NCBI GenBank assembly: GCA_964371005.1
Contig: CAYJNU010000001.1
Span: 27,104-80,715, forward strand
Direction: 5' to 3'
DNA: 53,612 bases
Source: an uncultured Verrucomicrobiota bacterium
GTDB lineage: Bacteria; Verrucomicrobiota; Verrucomicrobiia; Limisphaerales; MWDV01
Part shown: one piece after another, positions 16,495-44,644 of the stretch
Position numbering within the stretch: the first letter of the stretch is position 1
How the letters are laid out: the number at the start of each line of letters is the position of its first letter
Position numbers and translations under genes: made by a program
The notes under the pieces: generated by a model
Seen by the model: the letters and a program-made list of their open reading frames with translations, nothing else
Told to the model about the DNA's origin: nothing
Databases searched by the model: none

Positions 16495-17322
16495 TCAGAA
16501 GAAAGGATTGTGCGCCTGCTCCTCCGCCACCATCGTCAACGGACCGTGGCCGGGACACAGCAATGTGTCCGGCGGCAGCGTCAGGATTTGCTCGCGCACC
16601 TTCTGACAAGCCAGTTCCCACGACTGGTTGCCGCGCCCAATCGAGCCGGCGAAAAGCGCGTCGCCCACGATTGCGACATGCGGTGCGTCTGCCGGCCAGT
16701 TGTGAACGATGTAAGTCACGCCGTCCTCGGAGTGGCCCGGCGTCTCGCGATGCGTGATCCGCAGGCTGCCCAACTGCACGCATTCGCCGGGCTTGGTGCG
16801 CTGGTCCGTCGGCGCACTCCGCGCGTTCGTGTGTAGCCGCACTTTCGGAAATGCCGCCCGCACGTCGTCCACGGCCGCCACGTGATCGTGATGGCCGTGG
16901 GTGATAAACAGGTGACGGAGCAGGAGCTGGTTTGCCTCGATCTCGGCGAGCGCATCTCGGACGTTCCAACCGGTGTCGAACAGCGCCGCGTCCCGCGTCA
17001 CCTCATCCCAGAGCAAGTAACAGTTCACCGCCATGCCGCCATCGGCAGTCGTGAACACGCGCAGTTCCCGCCACGTGCTCAGGTCCTTTTCCGACGGCAA
17101 CCAGCCATCTGCGATGCCCTCCAGTTTGGCGGCGTGCAAACCGAGCAAGCCTGCCAATGCCGGTAGATTCGGGCGCTTCCCGATCACGCCGAAGGTTTCC
17201 AGGGCAGCCAGCTCCGGCTCGCTCAAACCGGCGGCCTTCGCGGCGTCGGCTGCCGAAACGCCAGTCATGGCGCGTGCCTTGCGGATGATGTCGCCCAGAT
17301 GGTCTTCGAGATTCATGTTCAA
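16495..17322 (-). CDS. MBL-fold metallo-hydrolase (glyoxalase II-like) with an N-terminal HTH-like domain
   Basis: 'FITHGHHDH' (HxHxDH) and the later 'TPGHS' and 'CPGHG' are metal-ligand blocks. The N-terminal 'LGDIIRKARAMTGVSAADAAKAAGLSEPELAALE' looks like an XRE-type HTH. Confidence 0.8.
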   Translation of the reverse strand: MNMNLEDHLGDIIRKARAMTGVSAADAAKAAGLSEPELAALETFGVIGKRPNLPALAGLLGLHAAKLEGIADGWLPSEKDLSTWRELRVFTTADGGMAVNCYLLWDEVTRDAALFDTGWNVRDALAEIEANQLLLRHLFITHGHHDHVAAVDDVRAAFPKVRLHTNARSAPTDQRTKPGECVQLGSLRITHRETPGHSEDGVTYIVHNWPADAPHVAIVGDALFAGSIGRGNQSWELACQKVREQILTLPPDTLLCPGHGPLTMVAEEQAHNPFF

Positions 17323-17417: not shown

Positions 17418-18128
17418 TCAACAGATCGTGACTTCGCGCAAACCAAGCAAGGCGGTGGTGTCGGCGTCATGGTCCGTCCCGCGTGGATGGAAAACGAATT
17501 CGTGTCGTCCGGGCGGCAGGCTGGAAAGGGCGGCTTGGATTTCTTTCGCGTTCATGCGGTACAGACGGTCAAGTCCCCAGAGCGTATCCGATTTCGCGGA
17601 GCGGTTCCACCGGCTGAGCCAGCGGCAGGCAAAGGGGCGAAGCCATCGCTCAGGGCCAGATGGACCAAACCAGCGCACCTCGAAACCGCGCAGCCAACCG
17701 ACAAACGTCCCAGGCAGGACGGACTCCAAGACGCGAAGCACCTGGGGGTGGACATGCAGGTGGTGGTGAGCATTCAGGAAATCACAGCGCAAGCCGGTGG
17801 ATTCAAACAACCGCCATTGTTGGCGAATCTCCCGACGCATGAGCTGTCGAGATTGAGCATGGCAGCCGATGGCCAGGCCGGCCCGAAAGGCGGATCCGCC
17901 CCAGGGCCAGGCCGGGCAGGTCGTCGGCGAAGAGTCGCACAAGTGCAGATGCCAACCGAGCTTTAGCGATGGGCACTCGCGGGCCAACTGAACCGCATGT
18001 TCGGTACCCGCTTGGCCCACCATCAGGCTGGCTCCATGAAGGGCGCCCTCGCGGTGCGCACGGAGAACCGCCAGGTTGATTGTTTCGCTGATGCCAAAAT
18101 CATCGGCAATGAAGACGCCGCCTGTCAT
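17418..18128 (-). CDS. ChbG/YdjC/HpnK-family carbohydrate deacetylase
   Basis: 'GVFIADDFGISETINLAVLRAHREGALHGASLMV' carries the DDFG motif and N-terminal block of the YdjC/ChbG/HpnK family. Its size of 236 aa fits. Confidence 0.75.
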   Translation of the reverse strand: MTGGVFIADDFGISETINLAVLRAHREGALHGASLMVGQAGTEHAVQLARECPSLKLGWHLHLCDSSPTTCPAWPWGGSAFRAGLAIGCHAQSRQLMRREIRQQWRLFESTGLRCDFLNAHHHLHVHPQVLRVLESVLPGTFVGWLRGFEVRWFGPSGPERWLRPFACRWLSRWNRSAKSDTLWGLDRLYRMNAKEIQAALSSLPPGRHEFVFHPRGTDHDADTTALLGLREVTIC

Positions 18129-18325
18129 GTGGCGAGGGTTTTACAGGCTTTGCTTTCCCATGCAAGGCTGATATGAAGCTGTGCGGAAGAACATGAAGGA
18201 CCAAGTCAACACCGCTCAGAAGGGCGGCATGGGTTTCATCGGTCGCGGACTCGTGCGCACCTCGATCACGCAAGGGAAACGCCTGAGTCTCCCATGCTTG
18301 GCCCTCCTTGCGGTTTTGCCTCTCC

Positions 18326-19603
18326 ATGCCGGTCATTGAGTATGCCTTGCTGGCTTGGACCGGTGTCGCCTTGATTTGGTGGCTGATCGCCTACCGGCTC
18401 CTGGGCGAATCACCCGACCCGAGCCCGGCGCCGACCGCGGCGCCACTGCCGACGCTCACGATCTTCAAACCGCTGCCTCCGACCACTGCCGACGCGGATC
18501 GCCTTCTTTTGGCGGCTGCCATCGAATCCTTTATCGCGCAGCTGGACGCGAATTCACAGATGCTTGTCGGCGTTGAACAAACGGAGGCGGACGCCTGGGA
18601 GCCGGTTTTCCAGCGTTGGCGTCGCGGTCCGGCAGCCGCACGGATTCTAATAGTGACCCTGCCGCCGCCACTTCCGGAAGCGAACCCCAAAATAGCCAAG
18701 CTGGAAGCTCTCGCGCCGATGGCGCTGGGGCGATTCTGGCTTTGGTCAGACGCGGACATCATCGCGCCCCCAGGCTTGCTAAGGCAGCTTCAGCGGGAAC
18801 TGGCCGATTCCGGTGCCGGCGGGGTAACGAGTGCCTACGCGGTGAGGTCGCCCGCGCGGGCGGCAGGAATGCTGGACGCGCTTTTTGTGAACCTGGAGTT
18901 CCTTCCCGGCGTGCTGCTGCTCGGCCGGCGCGGTCGGCTGGATTTCGCCTTCGGCGCCGCGACCTTGTTTTGCGCGGCGGATTTCCACGCCCGTGTCTCG
19001 TGGAGCGAGCTGCGCCGGGCCCTAGCCGATGACCACGAGTTGGGGAAGCGTCTGGGCTCCGTACGCCTGAGTGGTAGCGTCGTGGAGACGTTGGCCTTGT
19101 CGGTTGGCTGGCGACAGGCGCTGAACCACTATTATCGCTGGCAGAAGACGATTCGGTGGTGTCGGCCGGGAGGCTACGCGGCGTTACTCGTCATTCTGCC
19201 GTTCCTGGGGTGGCTGGCGGTGGCGTTGGCCCGTCCCTCGGCAGGACTGTCTTGGGCGGGGCTCGGTGGCACGTGGCTGGCAGAATCGGTTTTCGCTGGC
19301 ATCGCGTTTCGCAGGTTGAATTGTGTGCTACCGCGGAAAGGGTGGCTCGCGTTCATCGCTTGGCCCCCTCTGCGGGCGCTGACCTGGCTGGCGGTGTGGA
19401 TGCCCTTGCCGATCCGCTGGGGCGAAGGCCATGCCCTTTGGCGACAGCCACGACGCGCTTTCGCCAAATCGCCATCGGCGGAGGCGTGCGCTCAGACCGT
19501 CAAGGCACCAGCGACTGGCGGCGCTGCCGCAGGCCGCGAAAGAACTCAAAGCCCTCCCGACAGCGACGGACGCACACCGTGCGATCCTCCAGCATGGTCT
19601 TGA
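18326..19603 (+). CDS. Membrane glycosyltransferase, ceramide-glucosyltransferase/HpnI-like (GT-A with an R/QxxRW motif)
   Basis: N-terminal TM helix, 'LTIFKPL', 'WSDADIIAPPG', 'DDHELGKRL' and 'YYRWQKTIRW' ((Q/R)xxRW), plus C-terminal TM helices. ATG 18326 is preferred over TTG 18308. The 3' end overlaps the convergent radical SAM gene by 104 nt. Confidence 0.7.
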   Translation: MPVIEYALLAWTGVALIWWLIAYRLLGESPDPSPAPTAAPLPTLTIFKPLPPTTADADRLLLAAAIESFIAQLDANSQMLVGVEQTEADAWEPVFQRWRRGPAAARILIVTLPPPLPEANPKIAKLEALAPMALGRFWLWSDADIIAPPGLLRQLQRELADSGAGGVTSAYAVRSPARAAGMLDALFVNLEFLPGVLLLGRRGRLDFAFGAATLFCAADFHARVSWSELRRALADDHELGKRLGSVRLSGSVVETLALSVGWRQALNHYYRWQKTIRWCRPGGYAALLVILPFLGWLAVALARPSAGLSWAGLGGTWLAESVFAGIAFRRLNCVLPRKGWLAFIAWPPLRALTWLAVWMPLPIRWGEGHALWRQPRRAFAKSPSAEACAQTVKAPATGGAAAGRERTQSPPDSDGRTPCDPPAWS

Positions 19604-20927
19604 GGATGCGTAGGATCGGTCCGGGGCGAAGGTAGTAACTGCGGTAAAAGCGTTCCACCGCTTCAAAGATTTCCGCCCCACTCAGTTCGGGATACTCCAA
19701 GGCGGATGCCTGGAAGCCGTCTTCGCGCACCGATCCGGTGGCCACCGATTTGGCGAACCAGCCGTTCCGACGCGCCTGCTCATAAAGCTCCGTGCCCGGA
19801 TACGGGGCCGCGAGGGCGACCTGGATGCTAAACAAGTCGAGGTCCTTGGCGAAGTGGATGGTTTCCTCAATGGAATGTCTCGTCTCACCCGGAAGGCCCA
19901 GAATGAAGGCCCCATGAACGCGCACGCCGGTTTGGTGACACGCGCGCGTGAACCGACGCATCGTTTCCAGTGAAACACCCTTCTTGATGTTCTCCAGAAT
20001 CTTCGCGTTGCCGCTCTCGTAGCCAACCAGGAACAGCCGCAGTCCATAATCCTTGAAGAAACGCACGGTGTCTTCGTCCAGATTCGCGCGGCTGTTGCAG
20101 CTCCAGGTCAGGCCCAGCGGCGCAATTCGACGGGCGATTTCCCGAGCGCGGGGCAGGTTGGCCGTGAACGTATCGTCATCGAAAAAAAACTCTTTGACTT
20201 GAGGAAAGAGACGTTTCATGTACGCCATTTCCTCCGCCACGTTCTGCGCTGACCTGACCCGGTAACGCTGCCCTCCGATCGTCTGGGGCCAGAGGCAGAA
20301 CGTACACTGTGCCGGACAGCCCCGCCCGGAGTAGAAACTGACGTACGGATGGAGCAGGTAGCCAATGACGTAATTCTCGATCCGCAGGTTGCGCCGGTAC
20401 ACGTCCGCCACCCACGGCAGCACATCCAAGTCAGTGAGCAATTCCCGTTCAGGATTGTGGTGGATTGCGCCGCGGGCATCGCGGTAGGACAATCCGGTGA
20501 TTTGCCCCCACGGGCGACCTTCGCCCACCTCCTTGCAGGTGAAATCGAATTCTCTCCTTCCCACCCAGTCAATCGCCGGCGACGCCAACAATGTCTGTTC
20601 AGGCAGCACCGCAGCTTGAGCGCCCACAAATCCAATCCTTGTTTCCGGTCGCGCTTGCTTGATTGCCTCTGCCACGCAGCAGTCATTGCGCAGCGAAGGG
20701 GTCGAAGTGTGGATGACCACGTGATCGTGGTGACGCGCCTCGGCTAAACATTCCGCCAAGCCGAAGCGATGCGGCGGGCAATCCATCAATCGAGCGTCCG
20801 GCACCAGCGCTGCCGCTTGCGCCAACCAGGTAGGATACCAGAAACTGGTAACCTCACGCCGGGCTTGGTAGCGCGCTCCGGCGCCCCCGTCAAAACCGTC
20901 GTAACTCGGTGGGCACAAAAACAACAC
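19500..20927 (-). CDS. B12-binding-domain radical SAM protein, HpnJ-like
   Basis: The N-terminus 'LFLCPPSYDGFDGGAGARYQARREVTSFWYPTWLAQAAAL' resembles, as far as I recall it, the HpnJ N-terminus. The radical SAM cluster motif 'GRGCPAQCTFC' (CX3CX2C) is present. GTG start. Confidence 0.8.
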   Translation of the reverse strand: MLFLCPPSYDGFDGGAGARYQARREVTSFWYPTWLAQAAALVPDARLMDCPPHRFGLAECLAEARHHDHVVIHTSTPSLRNDCCVAEAIKQARPETRIGFVGAQAAVLPEQTLLASPAIDWVGRREFDFTCKEVGEGRPWGQITGLSYRDARGAIHHNPERELLTDLDVLPWVADVYRRNLRIENYVIGYLLHPYVSFYSGRGCPAQCTFCLWPQTIGGQRYRVRSAQNVAEEMAYMKRLFPQVKEFFFDDDTFTANLPRAREIARRIAPLGLTWSCNSRANLDEDTVRFFKDYGLRLFLVGYESGNAKILENIKKGVSLETMRRFTRACHQTGVRVHGAFILGLPGETRHSIEETIHFAKDLDLFSIQVALAAPYPGTELYEQARRNGWFAKSVATGSVREDGFQASALEYPELSGAEIFEAVERFYRSYYLRPGPILRILKTMLEDRTVCVRRCREGFEFFRGLRQRRQSLVP

Positions 20928-21233
20928 GCTGCCAAGCTAGCAGAGGCCGATGCCAACGCCAGATTTTGCGATGGGGGAGGGGCGTGGCCTCGACTCCCTT
21001 TCTGTTTTCACTCTGTTTGGGGTGGCCGACATCACGGAGCGCCAATTCCGCGTGCTATCCTCGGAGGTGCAGGGAGGGAATACAGTCCGCGTGTAACCTT
21101 TATGCAGCGGCTACTAACACTTCGCCGCGCCGTCTCCACAGAAAAAAGACGACAATGAAGTTGATATTGCCTGTTCTGGCCTCCACACTTCGAGGCGCTC
21201 CATCCGTGATGCTGATTTGGATGGTTCGCAGTT

Positions 21234-21557
21234 ATGCCATCGGAAGACGGTCATTTCGCACCACTACAGCTTGAACAAGCCATCCGGCGCCGTGCGCAGG
21301 TGATCAATGCCTTCAAAGAGGAGTTGATCCGGCGGCTAAACCTCCCTTTTGTCCCGGAAGACCTCCACGAAGATGTGTCACTGCTCGGTTCGGGGCTGGG
21401 GCTCGACTCGCTCGATGCGCTTGAGATCGTGCTTTGCATCGAACACTGCTTCCGCATCAAGATTCCCGACGAAAACATCGCCGTGCTGCGTTCAATCAAC
21501 ACCGTGGTGGATTTCATCATCGCCCAACAGGATGCCCAGGGAGGGAAGCCGGCATGA
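21234..21557 (+). CDS. Acyl carrier protein (phosphopantetheine attachment site)
   Basis: 'LLGSGLGLDSLDALEIVLCIEHCF' contains the DSL serine motif. It is 107 aa. Confidence 0.85.
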   Translation: MPSEDGHFAPLQLEQAIRRRAQVINAFKEELIRRLNLPFVPEDLHEDVSLLGSGLGLDSLDALEIVLCIEHCFRIKIPDENIAVLRSINTVVDFIIAQQDAQGGKPA

Positions 21558-43615: not shown

Positions 43616-44644
43616 ATGCTTCACACGCCGACTGCGAGCGAACTTACCGCCCGGGACGGAGTCCAGGAGCGCCTCCACGAACGGGCGCGGGCCGCAGTCC
43701 ACTCCCGGTTTGGCCGGCAGGTGTTTGTCCGGGCCGTGGTCGAGGTTTCCAACTTCTGTCGGGAAAACTGCCATTACTGCGGCATGCGCCGCGACAACCG
43801 CGCCCTGCACCGGACACGCATCGCGAGGGATGAACTGTTGGAGCTGCTGGTGAATCATCGCCCTGCCGCCGTCACCGACATCATGCTTCAAGCCGGCGAA
43901 GACCCAGTGGCGGCGCGCGAAATCGTGCTTCCACTGGTGCAGGCCTTGCGCCGGGAAACGCCCTGCGGCATCAGCGCCTGCCTGGGCACGCTGGACAGGG
44001 CGTTGTGTTCAGATTTGAATGCCGCCGGGGCATCGGTTTGCGTGCTCAAGTTCGAAACCTCCGATCCCCGAATCTACGAACAATGCGAAGCCCCGGGCAC
44101 GCTGCACCAACGATTGGAGCATCTCCACTGGCTCGCGGCGAACGGTTGGTGGGTCAGTTCGGGATTCATCGTCGGGCTGCCCCGGCAAACGGTGGAATCG
44201 TGGCTCGCGGATTGTCAGCTCGCGTCGCGCCTGCCGGTGACGGGGTGCAGCGCCAGCCCGTTTGTGCCGGGCGAAGCCACTCCATTGGCGAATGCCCTGC
44301 CCGGGGACGTGGAGACCACCTTGAACTGCATGGCCGTGATGCGCCTGCTGCGGCCGGGCTGGATCATCCCTGCGGTCAGCGCGCTCAATATCGGCCAGCC
44401 GGGCAGCGGCTATCGACGCGGCCTGCGCGCGGGCGCGAACCTCGTCACCATCAACCTCACGCCGCGTGACCTGCAACGCGAATACCTCATCTACAAACGC
44501 GACCGCTTCATCATGAACGAGGAGCGCGTCATGACCGCGCTGGAGACCGAGGGATTGACACCGTCGCCCCAGAGCTTGACTGGCTTTTTCGGCAACCGCG
44601 CGGCGCAGGCCACCGGATCAACCATCGCGCAGGCGGCCACCTGA
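43616..44644 (+). CDS. Radical SAM protein, BioB/HydE/ThiH-like
   Basis: 'VEVSNFCRENCHYCGMRRDN' (CX3CX2C at C48/C52/C55). It is 342 aa with TIM-barrel-like periodicity as in BioB-type enzymes. Confidence 0.8.
   Translation: MLHTPTASELTARDGVQERLHERARAAVHSRFGRQVFVRAVVEVSNFCRENCHYCGMRRDNRALHRTRIARDELLELLVNHRPAAVTDIMLQAGEDPVAAREIVLPLVQALRRETPCGISACLGTLDRALCSDLNAAGASVCVLKFETSDPRIYEQCEAPGTLHQRLEHLHWLAANGWWVSSGFIVGLPRQTVESWLADCQLASRLPVTGCSASPFVPGEATPLANALPGDVETTLNCMAVMRLLRPGWIIPAVSALNIGQPGSGYRRGLRAGANLVTINLTPRDLQREYLIYKRDRFIMNEERVMTALETEGLTPSPQSLTGFFGNRAAQATGSTIAQAAT

Follow-up and report, generated by a model that had tools for sequence, protein, structure and literature searches.

A predicted HpnJ radical SAM enzyme with partners from an apparent sister family of HpnI and HpnK next to an aryl-polyene-type lipid cluster in a Verrucomicrobiota genome

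Hopanoid producers carry a triad of a GT2/GT21 glycosyltransferase (HpnI), a YdjC deacetylase (HpnK) and a B12-binding radical S-adenosylmethionine (SAM) enzyme (HpnJ), for the genetics of which the primary work is said to be that of Schmerk et al. in 2015. In Burkholderia it is normal for this triad to lie apart from shc, the gene for squalene-hopene cyclase (SHC), and the same separation is seen at loci of Proteobacteria, Cyanobacteria and Elusimicrobia. We analysed a 53,612-nt stretch of DNA from an uncultured Verrucomicrobiota bacterium (the window), which carries a comparable set of three genes at 17418-20927 of its open reading frame (ORF) listing. As in the hopanoid triad, the three enzyme types stand together and the radical SAM protein is a true family member and ortholog. 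However, the glycosyltransferase and deacetylase of the window fall in sister clades, with scores roughly a third to a half of those that the families require, and the deacetylase lacks ~45 aa relative to HpnK. The genes are also arranged differently in order and strand, and the unit abuts a polyene-type lipid cluster. HpnJ is ordinary here; the new part appears to be that its partners come from a large sister family of HpnI and HpnK not captured by curated models.

Evidence for the activity of HpnJ comes solely from a deletion of its gene in B. cenocepacia; the activity has not been reconstituted and its mechanism is unexplored, the proposed reaction being a ring contraction that converts bacteriohopanetetrol (BHT)-glucosamine to a cyclitol ether (PMC13459092). 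A survey of 15,541 species found HpnJ domains restricted to genomes having SHC and HpnH (10.1101/2025.07.29.667474). The second relevant system is the aryl polyene (APE) lipid cluster apeA-R of Xenorhabdus doucetiae and E. coli CFT073, in which, as at the window, a type II fatty acid synthase/polyketide synthase-like polyene lipid cluster includes an LpxL-type acyltransferase, LolA-like and MMPL export genes and, at least as a candidate here, a cluster-encoded glycosyltransferase installing an amino sugar (10.1101/2020.12.19.423268). Xenorhabdus APE lipids contain a GalNAc-phosphate-glycerol unit attached by the cluster's glycosyltransferase ApeJ, and known APE lipids have their polyene attached to the amino sugar through an ester bond (10.1101/2020.12.19.423268). 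Glycosyltransferases and deacetylases of the window's type hold the equivalent accessory place in Verrucomicrobial clusters. Unlike the window, apeA-R has no described deacetylase, epimerase or radical SAM sugar-remodelling enzyme, and the window cluster also has 'ladderane-type' radical SAM and ketosynthase (KS) genes.

The radical SAM protein (19500-20927, minus strand, 475 aa) is a genuine HpnJ and an ordinary ortholog of the hopanoid-linked enzymes. The initial annotation had noted a resemblance to HpnJ, and the NCBIfam model TIGR03471 bears this out at 711 bits against a cut-off of 577.6, with residues 2-471 aligned end to end on model positions 4-472; a six-frame search of the genome gave the same result. 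Pfam matched Radical_SAM at 77.5 bits and the B12-binding domain at 23.6 bits, the latter under its own gathering score, and the CX3CX2C motif reads CPAQCTFC (residues 204-211). Identity is 71-77% to Verrucomicrobiota HpnJ, with metagenome-assembled genomes (MAGs) of Verrucomicrobiota subdivision 3 / Limisphaerales nearest, and 55-60% to HpnJ of Nostoc, Acidisoma and Microvirga. In the tree the protein is nested inside the Verrucomicrobial HpnJ clade with 99% support in the Shimodaira-Hasegawa-like approximate likelihood ratio test (SH-aLRT). At 38 of the 41 Verrucomicrobial loci nearest to it, hpnJ comes immediately downstream of hpnH, and none of the 41 has polyene-type genes near hpnJ; in Proteobacteria, Cyanobacteria and Elusimicrobia the gene (product 55-60% identical) is flanked by YdjC and glycosyltransferase genes and sometimes by shc. 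Across 121 genomes of the order HpnJ exceeded the cut-off in 78, with large fragments in six more. Cross-reading of two profile searches found SHC in all 83 other HpnJ carriers of the order, and a full HpnJ in none of its six SHC-negative genomes. The closest solved relative of the HpnJ core is AprD4 (6fd2, the apramycin radical SAM diol-dehydratase; E 9e-22), which works on the ring of an amino sugar, as HpnJ is proposed to do. It nevertheless belongs to a different family (NF033070, on which window HpnJ scores 87 bits against a cut-off of 500) and catalyses a different reaction.

The partners are another matter. The membrane glycosyltransferase (18308-19603, plus strand, 431 aa; hereafter GT21), which adjoins both HpnJ and the deacetylase, matched Pfam Glyco_transf_21 at 83.1 bits, and its sole NCBIfam match was HpnI (TIGR03472) at 116.4 bits, below the cut-off of 310, compared with 221 and 263 bits for HpnI-clade glycosyltransferases of the same order. 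A maximum-likelihood (ML) tree placed it in a window-type clade (100% SH-aLRT) apart from an HpnI clade made up of 12 order-typical glycosyltransferases and 21 HpnJ-adjacent ones from other phyla, a split confirmed in a 96-row tree. Its description as HpnI-like is thus correct as to the best NCBIfam match but not as to score or clade, and it is a member of a sister clade of HpnI (clade B below, of the window-type family). Order-typical GT21 homologs, 28-36% identical to it, are present in 85 of the 121 genomes, tracking HpnJ. The motifs are DAD (148-150), DD (241-242) and RWQKTIRW (277-284), the last of which the initial annotation had quoted. The C-terminal ~45 aa are not conserved, and relatives are mostly ~375-390 aa long; the coding sequence of this extension shares 104 nt (19500-19603) with the conserved 3' end of the HpnJ gene, which is convergent with it. 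With the GT21 ceramide glucosyltransferases the protein shares the Pfam family, the character of a membrane glycosyltransferase acting on a lipid hydroxyl, and the D, D, D and RW-type motifs; nothing, however, points to a ceramide acceptor or a glucose donor.

A parallel picture emerged for the YdjC-family deacetylase (17418-18128, minus strand, 236 aa; ORF listing and Pfam YdjC, 134.5 bits). Its best NCBIfam match was HpnK (TIGR03473) at 129.4 bits, below the cut-off of 232.6, with a best stretch over residues 5-134 only of a protein that is shorter than the ~283-residue model; an order-typical HpnK-clade protein scores 270.9 bits, above cut-off. In the ML tree nine window-type rows (100% SH-aLRT) separated from 32 HpnK-clade rows, so that HpnK-like, as it had been called, again describes its best match and not its clade, and the protein belongs to a 'window-type' sister clade of HpnK. 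Order-typical YdjC homologs occur in 86 of the 121 genomes, tracking HpnJ, at 33-51% identity to the window protein, the higher values up to 51% being partial N-terminal alignments. In at least 14 genomes of the order the HpnK-clade gene lies ~2 kb from shc, unlike window YdjC. The catalytic motifs are intact: DDFG (9-12, as quoted in the initial annotation), HLH (60-62) and HHHLHVH (121-127). The nearest solved structure is the chitooligosaccharide deacetylase 7vi8; with such ChbG/YdjC enzymes the window protein has in common the fold family, the DDFG and His clusters forming metal and acid-base motifs, and presumably the chemistry of GlcNAc de-N-acetylation. The similarity is nevertheless distant (E 8.5e-11, N-terminal half only), and the context of the window gene is lipid-linked rather than one of chitobiose catabolism.

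We considered whether window GT21 and YdjC might be fast-evolving Verrucomicrobial versions of HpnI and HpnK and rejected this, as the order's own proteins, including a congener's HpnI, group with those of other phyla. Because the trees split the window proteins cleanly from the HpnI and HpnK of the order, the two are paralogs or xenologs rather than fast-evolving orthologs. Two other YdjC-family sequences deserve mention. The same MAG has on contig C3 (44333-45127) a second, distant region, which matches the HpnK model over the full length at 59.5 bits and forms part of a 509-aa open frame, possibly a fusion protein. In another genome of the order (G096, contig C80; L221, 6787-10487) the genes for a thioesterase and a polyene-type ketosynthase-chain length factor (KS-CLF) are directly preceded by one for an HpnK-clade YdjC that is 44% identical to an order-typical HpnK, a second, independent case of a hopanoid-type deacetylase adjoining polyene-lipid genes.

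Relatives of window GT21 numbered 338 at E <= 1e-10, several from Verrucomicrobiales MAGs and many carrying the JGI name "ceramide glucosyltransferase". The divergent arrangement of YdjC and GT21 recurs at L111, L114, L115, L117, L118, L119 and L138-L140, and the tail-to-tail arrangement of GT21 and HpnJ at L114, L117, L118, L140, L142, L146, L148, L152 and L153. L117, a near-identical independent assembly (96% identical), reproduces the window layout including the divergent arrangement of HpnJ and the first acyl carrier protein (ACP) gene. At L118 and L140 the whole YdjC-GT21-HpnJ unit lies directly beside genes for an MMPL-LpxL fusion, LolA, an ApeI-like dehydratase, DUF8321/8322 and ACP, and at L114 the triad is a few genes away from an MMPL-LpxL fusion. 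L115, L119, L138 and L139 have YdjC divergent from an HpnA-like epimerase gene followed by GT21, within clusters of KS, CLF, ACP, AMP-ligase and halogenase genes, and with a HydE-like or ThiH-like radical SAM gene instead of HpnJ.

A metagenome scan with the GT21 family alignment gave 80 loci, of which the 48 of at least 6 kb were used for context counts. A paired YdjC was present in 46 of these, an HpnA-like epimerase in 38 and DUF8321/8322 also in 38; one or more polyene-type lipid genes accompanied the pair in 42, and three or more in 36. Five of the 48 (L142, L146, L148, L152, L153) had HpnJ, with no polyene genes in flanks of up to 10 kb, and one (L215) had SHC. Rooted on the HpnI clade, the 96-row GT21 tree comprised a clade A of 65 rows, whose loci are polyene-embedded and never contain HpnJ, and a clade B of 23 rows (97% SH-aLRT) in which the window and each of the nine HpnJ-linked loci of the tree are intermingled with polyene-embedded loci. 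A tenth HpnJ-linked locus, L140, is outside the tree, its radical SAM protein being 74% identical to window HpnJ. These patterns show a large, unnamed GT21/YdjC sister family of HpnI and HpnK, outside the curated models and mostly associated with aryl-polyene-type clusters; no paper describing it was found in the literature searched. In clade A loci (32 of the 48 metagenome loci) GT21 is directly followed by a HydE-like radical SAM gene, as at 9268-10272 in L115, of the same type as the one at 43616-44644 in the window's radical SAM/KS operon, and it may be the counterpart of HpnJ in clade A clusters.

Two members of the family lie in a different setting. In the congener G024 a window-type YdjC (54% identical) forms an operon with HpnJ and an HpnI-clade glycosyltransferase (263 bits), away from any lipid cluster. 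L215 (1186-11599) has, in a row, a window-type GT21, an MMPL transporter whose best match is HpnN (137 bits), LolA, a window-type YdjC, two unknown ORFs, SHC (681 bits) and FPP synthase, and is the only locus found that physically joins the sister family to shc. Separately, at L077 (~9934, a Chthoniobacteraceae MAG) the gene immediately upstream of HpnJ encodes a homolog of the DUF8321/8322 protein, which in polyene-type clusters normally comes after window-type YdjC.

Contig C1, on which the window lies, belongs to a 7.77-Mb MAG of 597 contigs, with 91.7% completeness and 6.6% contamination. The initial annotation had found no shc, hpnH, hpnG or hpnO, which holds for these 53 kb; elsewhere in the genome there are two HpnH genes above cut-off (C115:11555-12958 and C395:3-1103, 74% identical at the DNA level), HpnD (297 bits, cut-off 279), HpnA (431 bits, cut-off 368), an HpnN-like transporter (584 bits) and a cut shc. 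The two HpnH copies may be paralogs or the sign of a second organism in the bin, and since the C395 copy runs to the contig start, an hpnJ behind it, as in relatives, is possible. A full SHC was not found in the assembly. Contig C25 begins inside an ORF that gives 74 SHC N-terminal residues, 60% identical to a congener's SHC, and SHC is above cut-off in 110 of the 121 genomes of the order, both congeners included; the absence of a full shc therefore looks like an assembly gap. On these grounds a non-hopanoid organism was rejected, and the genome is predicted to be that of a hopanoid producer with dispersed genes, as is the rule throughout the order, where hpnI, hpnJ and hpnK are usually scattered. 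No HpnI-clade or HpnK-clade gene was found in the assembly, nor any HpnI-like or HpnK-like gene besides the window pair. A 611-aa cyclase-like ORF on contig C274 was examined as the missing SHC and rejected, as it scored 120 bits on TIGR01787 (cut-off 323) and represents a different terpene cyclase; it lies (L022, 832-9279) beside a 635-aa polyprenyl-synthase fusion, a SPASM-type radical SAM gene, a ferredoxin-like protein and dxs, possibly an uncharacterised terpene cyclase locus.

The ORF listing agrees with the initial annotation on the three genes and their coordinates. They do not form one operon: GT21 runs on the other strand. A 179-nt intergenic region (18129-18307), presumably housing both promoters, separates it from the divergent YdjC, and it converges with HpnJ through the 3'-end overlap. 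HpnJ is in turn divergent from the first ACP gene of the lipid cluster, which starts at 21234; the spacer, estimated earlier at about 300 nt, measures 306 nt (20928-21233). Promoter and terminator scans of the triad spacers gave background levels only, and an Rfam search of the intergenic spacers matched no family, riboswitch or other RNA. The window has neither an HpnA-like epimerase between YdjC and GT21 nor DUF8321/8322 after YdjC. Directly downstream of YdjC on the same strand is instead a metallo-beta-lactamase-fold hydrolase (16495-17322, minus strand; GloB-like, 64 bits, below cut-off), whose place is taken by the DUF8321/8322 protein at other loci. It is probably co-transcribed with YdjC, but its membership of the unit is doubtful because it is conserved only in the near-identical assembly L117.

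The neighbouring cluster (21234-48652, from Pfam and NCBIfam matches) is aryl-polyene/flexirubin-like with a 'ladderane-type' radical SAM component. It encodes ACP, a GcvT-like protein, a 4HBT thioesterase, FabG, FabD, an aminotransferase fusion, an ApeI/ApeP-like dehydratase, PlsC-type and C45 acyltransferases, LolA and a CE4 deacetylase. Further genes specify a KS-CLF fusion, an LpxL-type acyltransferase, an aromatic amino-acid ammonia-lyase, an AMP-ligase, the HydE-like radical SAM protein (43616-44644), a TIGR04072 "lipid biosynthesis" B12-radical SAM protein (403 bits, cut-off 360), a second B12-radical SAM protein and FabF. The divergent YdjC-GT21 pair is 1.6 kb from the first gene of this cluster, with HpnJ between. 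As had been proposed, the cluster shows no glycosyltransferase of its own among the genes with a Pfam or NCBIfam match, three of its ORFs being matchless. Of the 121 genomes sampled from the order, ten encode a polyene-type KS-CLF; among the nine besides this MAG, GT21, YdjC and HpnJ are all missing from six.

From the gene identities, the family and clade placements, the conserved linkage and the hopanoid genes elsewhere in the genome, we infer a sugar, an order of steps and an acceptor. The three genes would be one functional unit making an amino-sugar-derived head group on a lipid hydroxyl. GT21 would transfer an N-acetylhexosamine, most likely GlcNAc from UDP-GlcNAc, a donor argued for because the enzyme is paired with a deacetylase; YdjC would take off the acetyl group; and HpnJ would contract the glucosamine ring by radical chemistry to give the cyclitol ether. 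The most likely acceptor would be the organism's own C35 hopanoid, BHT, with BHT-glucosamine and then BHT cyclitol ether as products, the sister-family GT21 and YdjC having displaced the canonical HpnI/HpnK pair in this lineage. In our estimation the best reading, about as likely as not, is that a hopanoid glucosamine/cyclitol-ether head group is the product of the triad, in which the partners of HpnJ are not orthologs of HpnI and HpnK.

Several observations favour a hopanoid acceptor: an HpnJ that passes its cut-off, nests among Verrucomicrobial relatives, belongs to a lineage paired with hpnH and comes from a family restricted to genomes with SHC and HpnH; hopanoid genes elsewhere in the genome; and the standing of the window pair as sole candidate HpnJ partners in the assembly. 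The window-type deacetylase would work beside a canonical HpnI, because the G024 operon combines both, and L215 supplies a direct hopanoid context for the sister family. The five HpnJ triads without flanking polyene genes suggest that the triad can stand alone, the KS-CLF genomes without the pair suggest that the polyene cluster does not need it in this order, and the catalytic motifs are intact. On the other side, GT21 and YdjC score below the HpnI and HpnK cut-offs and lie outside the order's hopanoid-linked clades; their family is overwhelmingly found in aryl-polyene-type clusters, with the L139 pair sitting mid-cluster among polyene-type genes; and its function is read from sequence and context. 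Four HpnJ-linked lineages (window/L117, L114, L118 and L140) abut polyene-type genes, too often for chance, and known APE lipids carry an amino sugar installed by the cluster's own glycosyltransferase, a kind of enzyme for which the window cluster offers no other candidate. At 91.7% completeness, canonical hpnI and hpnK could also be unassembled. Phylogenetic profiles of the triad against shc, as the initial annotation had proposed, were run and could not discriminate between acceptors, since SHC and HpnH are near-universal where the family is found: each is present in 45 of the 47 genomes in the order of G519, SHC is present in every other sister-family carrier checked, and a phylum sample of 401 genomes had almost no family members. 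The literature searched yielded no paper that connects aryl-polyene clusters to hopanoid tailoring genes, or Verrucomicrobia chemistry to cyclitol ethers.

The main rival is the idea put forward in the initial annotation, that the acceptor is not a hopanoid and is plausibly the product of the neighbouring cluster. In its fuller form YdjC and GT21, whether or not HpnJ takes part, would make the amino-sugar or cyclitol head group for the lipid of the adjoining aryl-polyene-type cluster, HpnJ having been recruited to remodel that sugar, which we regard as possible, though less probable. It fits the embedding of the family in polyene genes at 42 of 48 metagenome loci, plus L115, L118, L119, L138, L139 and L140; the position of clade A GT21 directly before a HydE-like radical SAM gene of the same type as that of the window; the lack of another glycosyltransferase among the matched cluster genes; the four HpnJ-linked lineages that abut such clusters; the GalNAc that ApeJ adds in Xenorhabdus (10.1101/2020.12.19.423268); and the HpnA-like epimerase usually found with the pair, which could supply a 4-epimer sugar. 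It has to contend, however, with the restriction of HpnJ to SHC- and HpnH-positive genomes (10.1101/2025.07.29.667474) and its ancestral pairing with hpnH in the phylum, and it would leave HpnJ without a hopanoid substrate in this genome, yet well conserved. Nor do the five HpnJ-linked and 42 polyene-linked metagenome loci overlap; six genomes of the order have polyene-type KS-CLF without any GT21 or YdjC, and G024 joins a window-type YdjC, a canonical HpnI and HpnJ away from lipid clusters. The initial annotation had held that a complete hopanoid locus elsewhere in the genome, along with hopanoid cyclitol ethers as the sole products dependent on these genes, or scores below the family cut-offs for hidden Markov models, would tell against its idea; hopanoid genes are indeed present elsewhere and two of the three scores are below cut-off, each applying in part, and a non-hopanoid acceptor is not the best-supported reading here.

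Both linkages would be accommodated at once if the sister-family module, with HpnJ in the window sub-clade, joined the hopanoid and polyene-lipid pathways in a hopanoid-anchored polyene glycolipid, a so far undescribed lipid class, exported by MMPL and LolA, which we think quite unlikely; a weaker form would be a cyclitol-bearing polyene lipid without the hopanoid part. In the conjugate, hopanoid-linked glucosamine, or cyclitol where HpnJ is present, would be acylated with a polyene-type chain by an LpxL- or PlsC-type acyltransferase at the amine freed by YdjC or at a sugar hydroxyl, by analogy with the deacetylate-then-acylate logic of lipid A. Such a molecule would account together for the HpnJ linkage and the polyene-cluster embedding, and it draws on L215, where the module is set beside SHC, on the best NCBIfam matches of five module proteins, all hopanoid-associated (HpnI, HpnK, HpnA, HpnN, HpnJ), on the esterification of polyene to an amino sugar in known APE lipids (10.1101/2020.12.19.423268), and on the presence of SHC in all genomes in which the family was found (this MAG as a fragment, G084, G159, G417, G519 and 23 of 24 in the order of G519). 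That last co-occurrence weighs little, though, as SHC is near-universal in these lineages; polyene-type clusters occur without the pair and HpnJ triads without polyene genes nearby, and no such lipid is reported in the literature searched. The genes may also be adjacent without joint function, YdjC and GT21 serving the lipid cluster or an unrelated glycoconjugate and HpnJ being stranded, its partners lost or missing from the bin. The fragmentation, incompleteness and contamination of the MAG (597 contigs, 91.7% and 6.6%), the different strands of the triad genes and the usual dispersal of hpnI, hpnJ and hpnK in the order would suit this. It is nonetheless very improbable, as the arrangement of GT21 tail-to-tail with HpnJ and with a divergent YdjC recurs at nine or more loci despite GT21 identities of only 42-51%, a conserved linkage and not chance, and the independent assembly L117 shows the same layout.

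Composite bacteriohopanepolyols, BHT cyclitol ether among them, serve as environmental and geological biomarkers and are predicted from annotations of HpnI, HpnK and HpnJ. Members of the sister family of HpnI and HpnK occur regularly in aryl-polyene-type clusters. If they act on hopanoids, genome surveys underestimate the capacity of Verrucomicrobiota for cyclitol ethers. If they act on polyene lipids, the family provides the head-group enzymes so far missing from a widespread cluster type whose chemistry is unsolved, and, should the polyene acceptor prove true, HpnJ would not be strictly a hopanoid enzyme.

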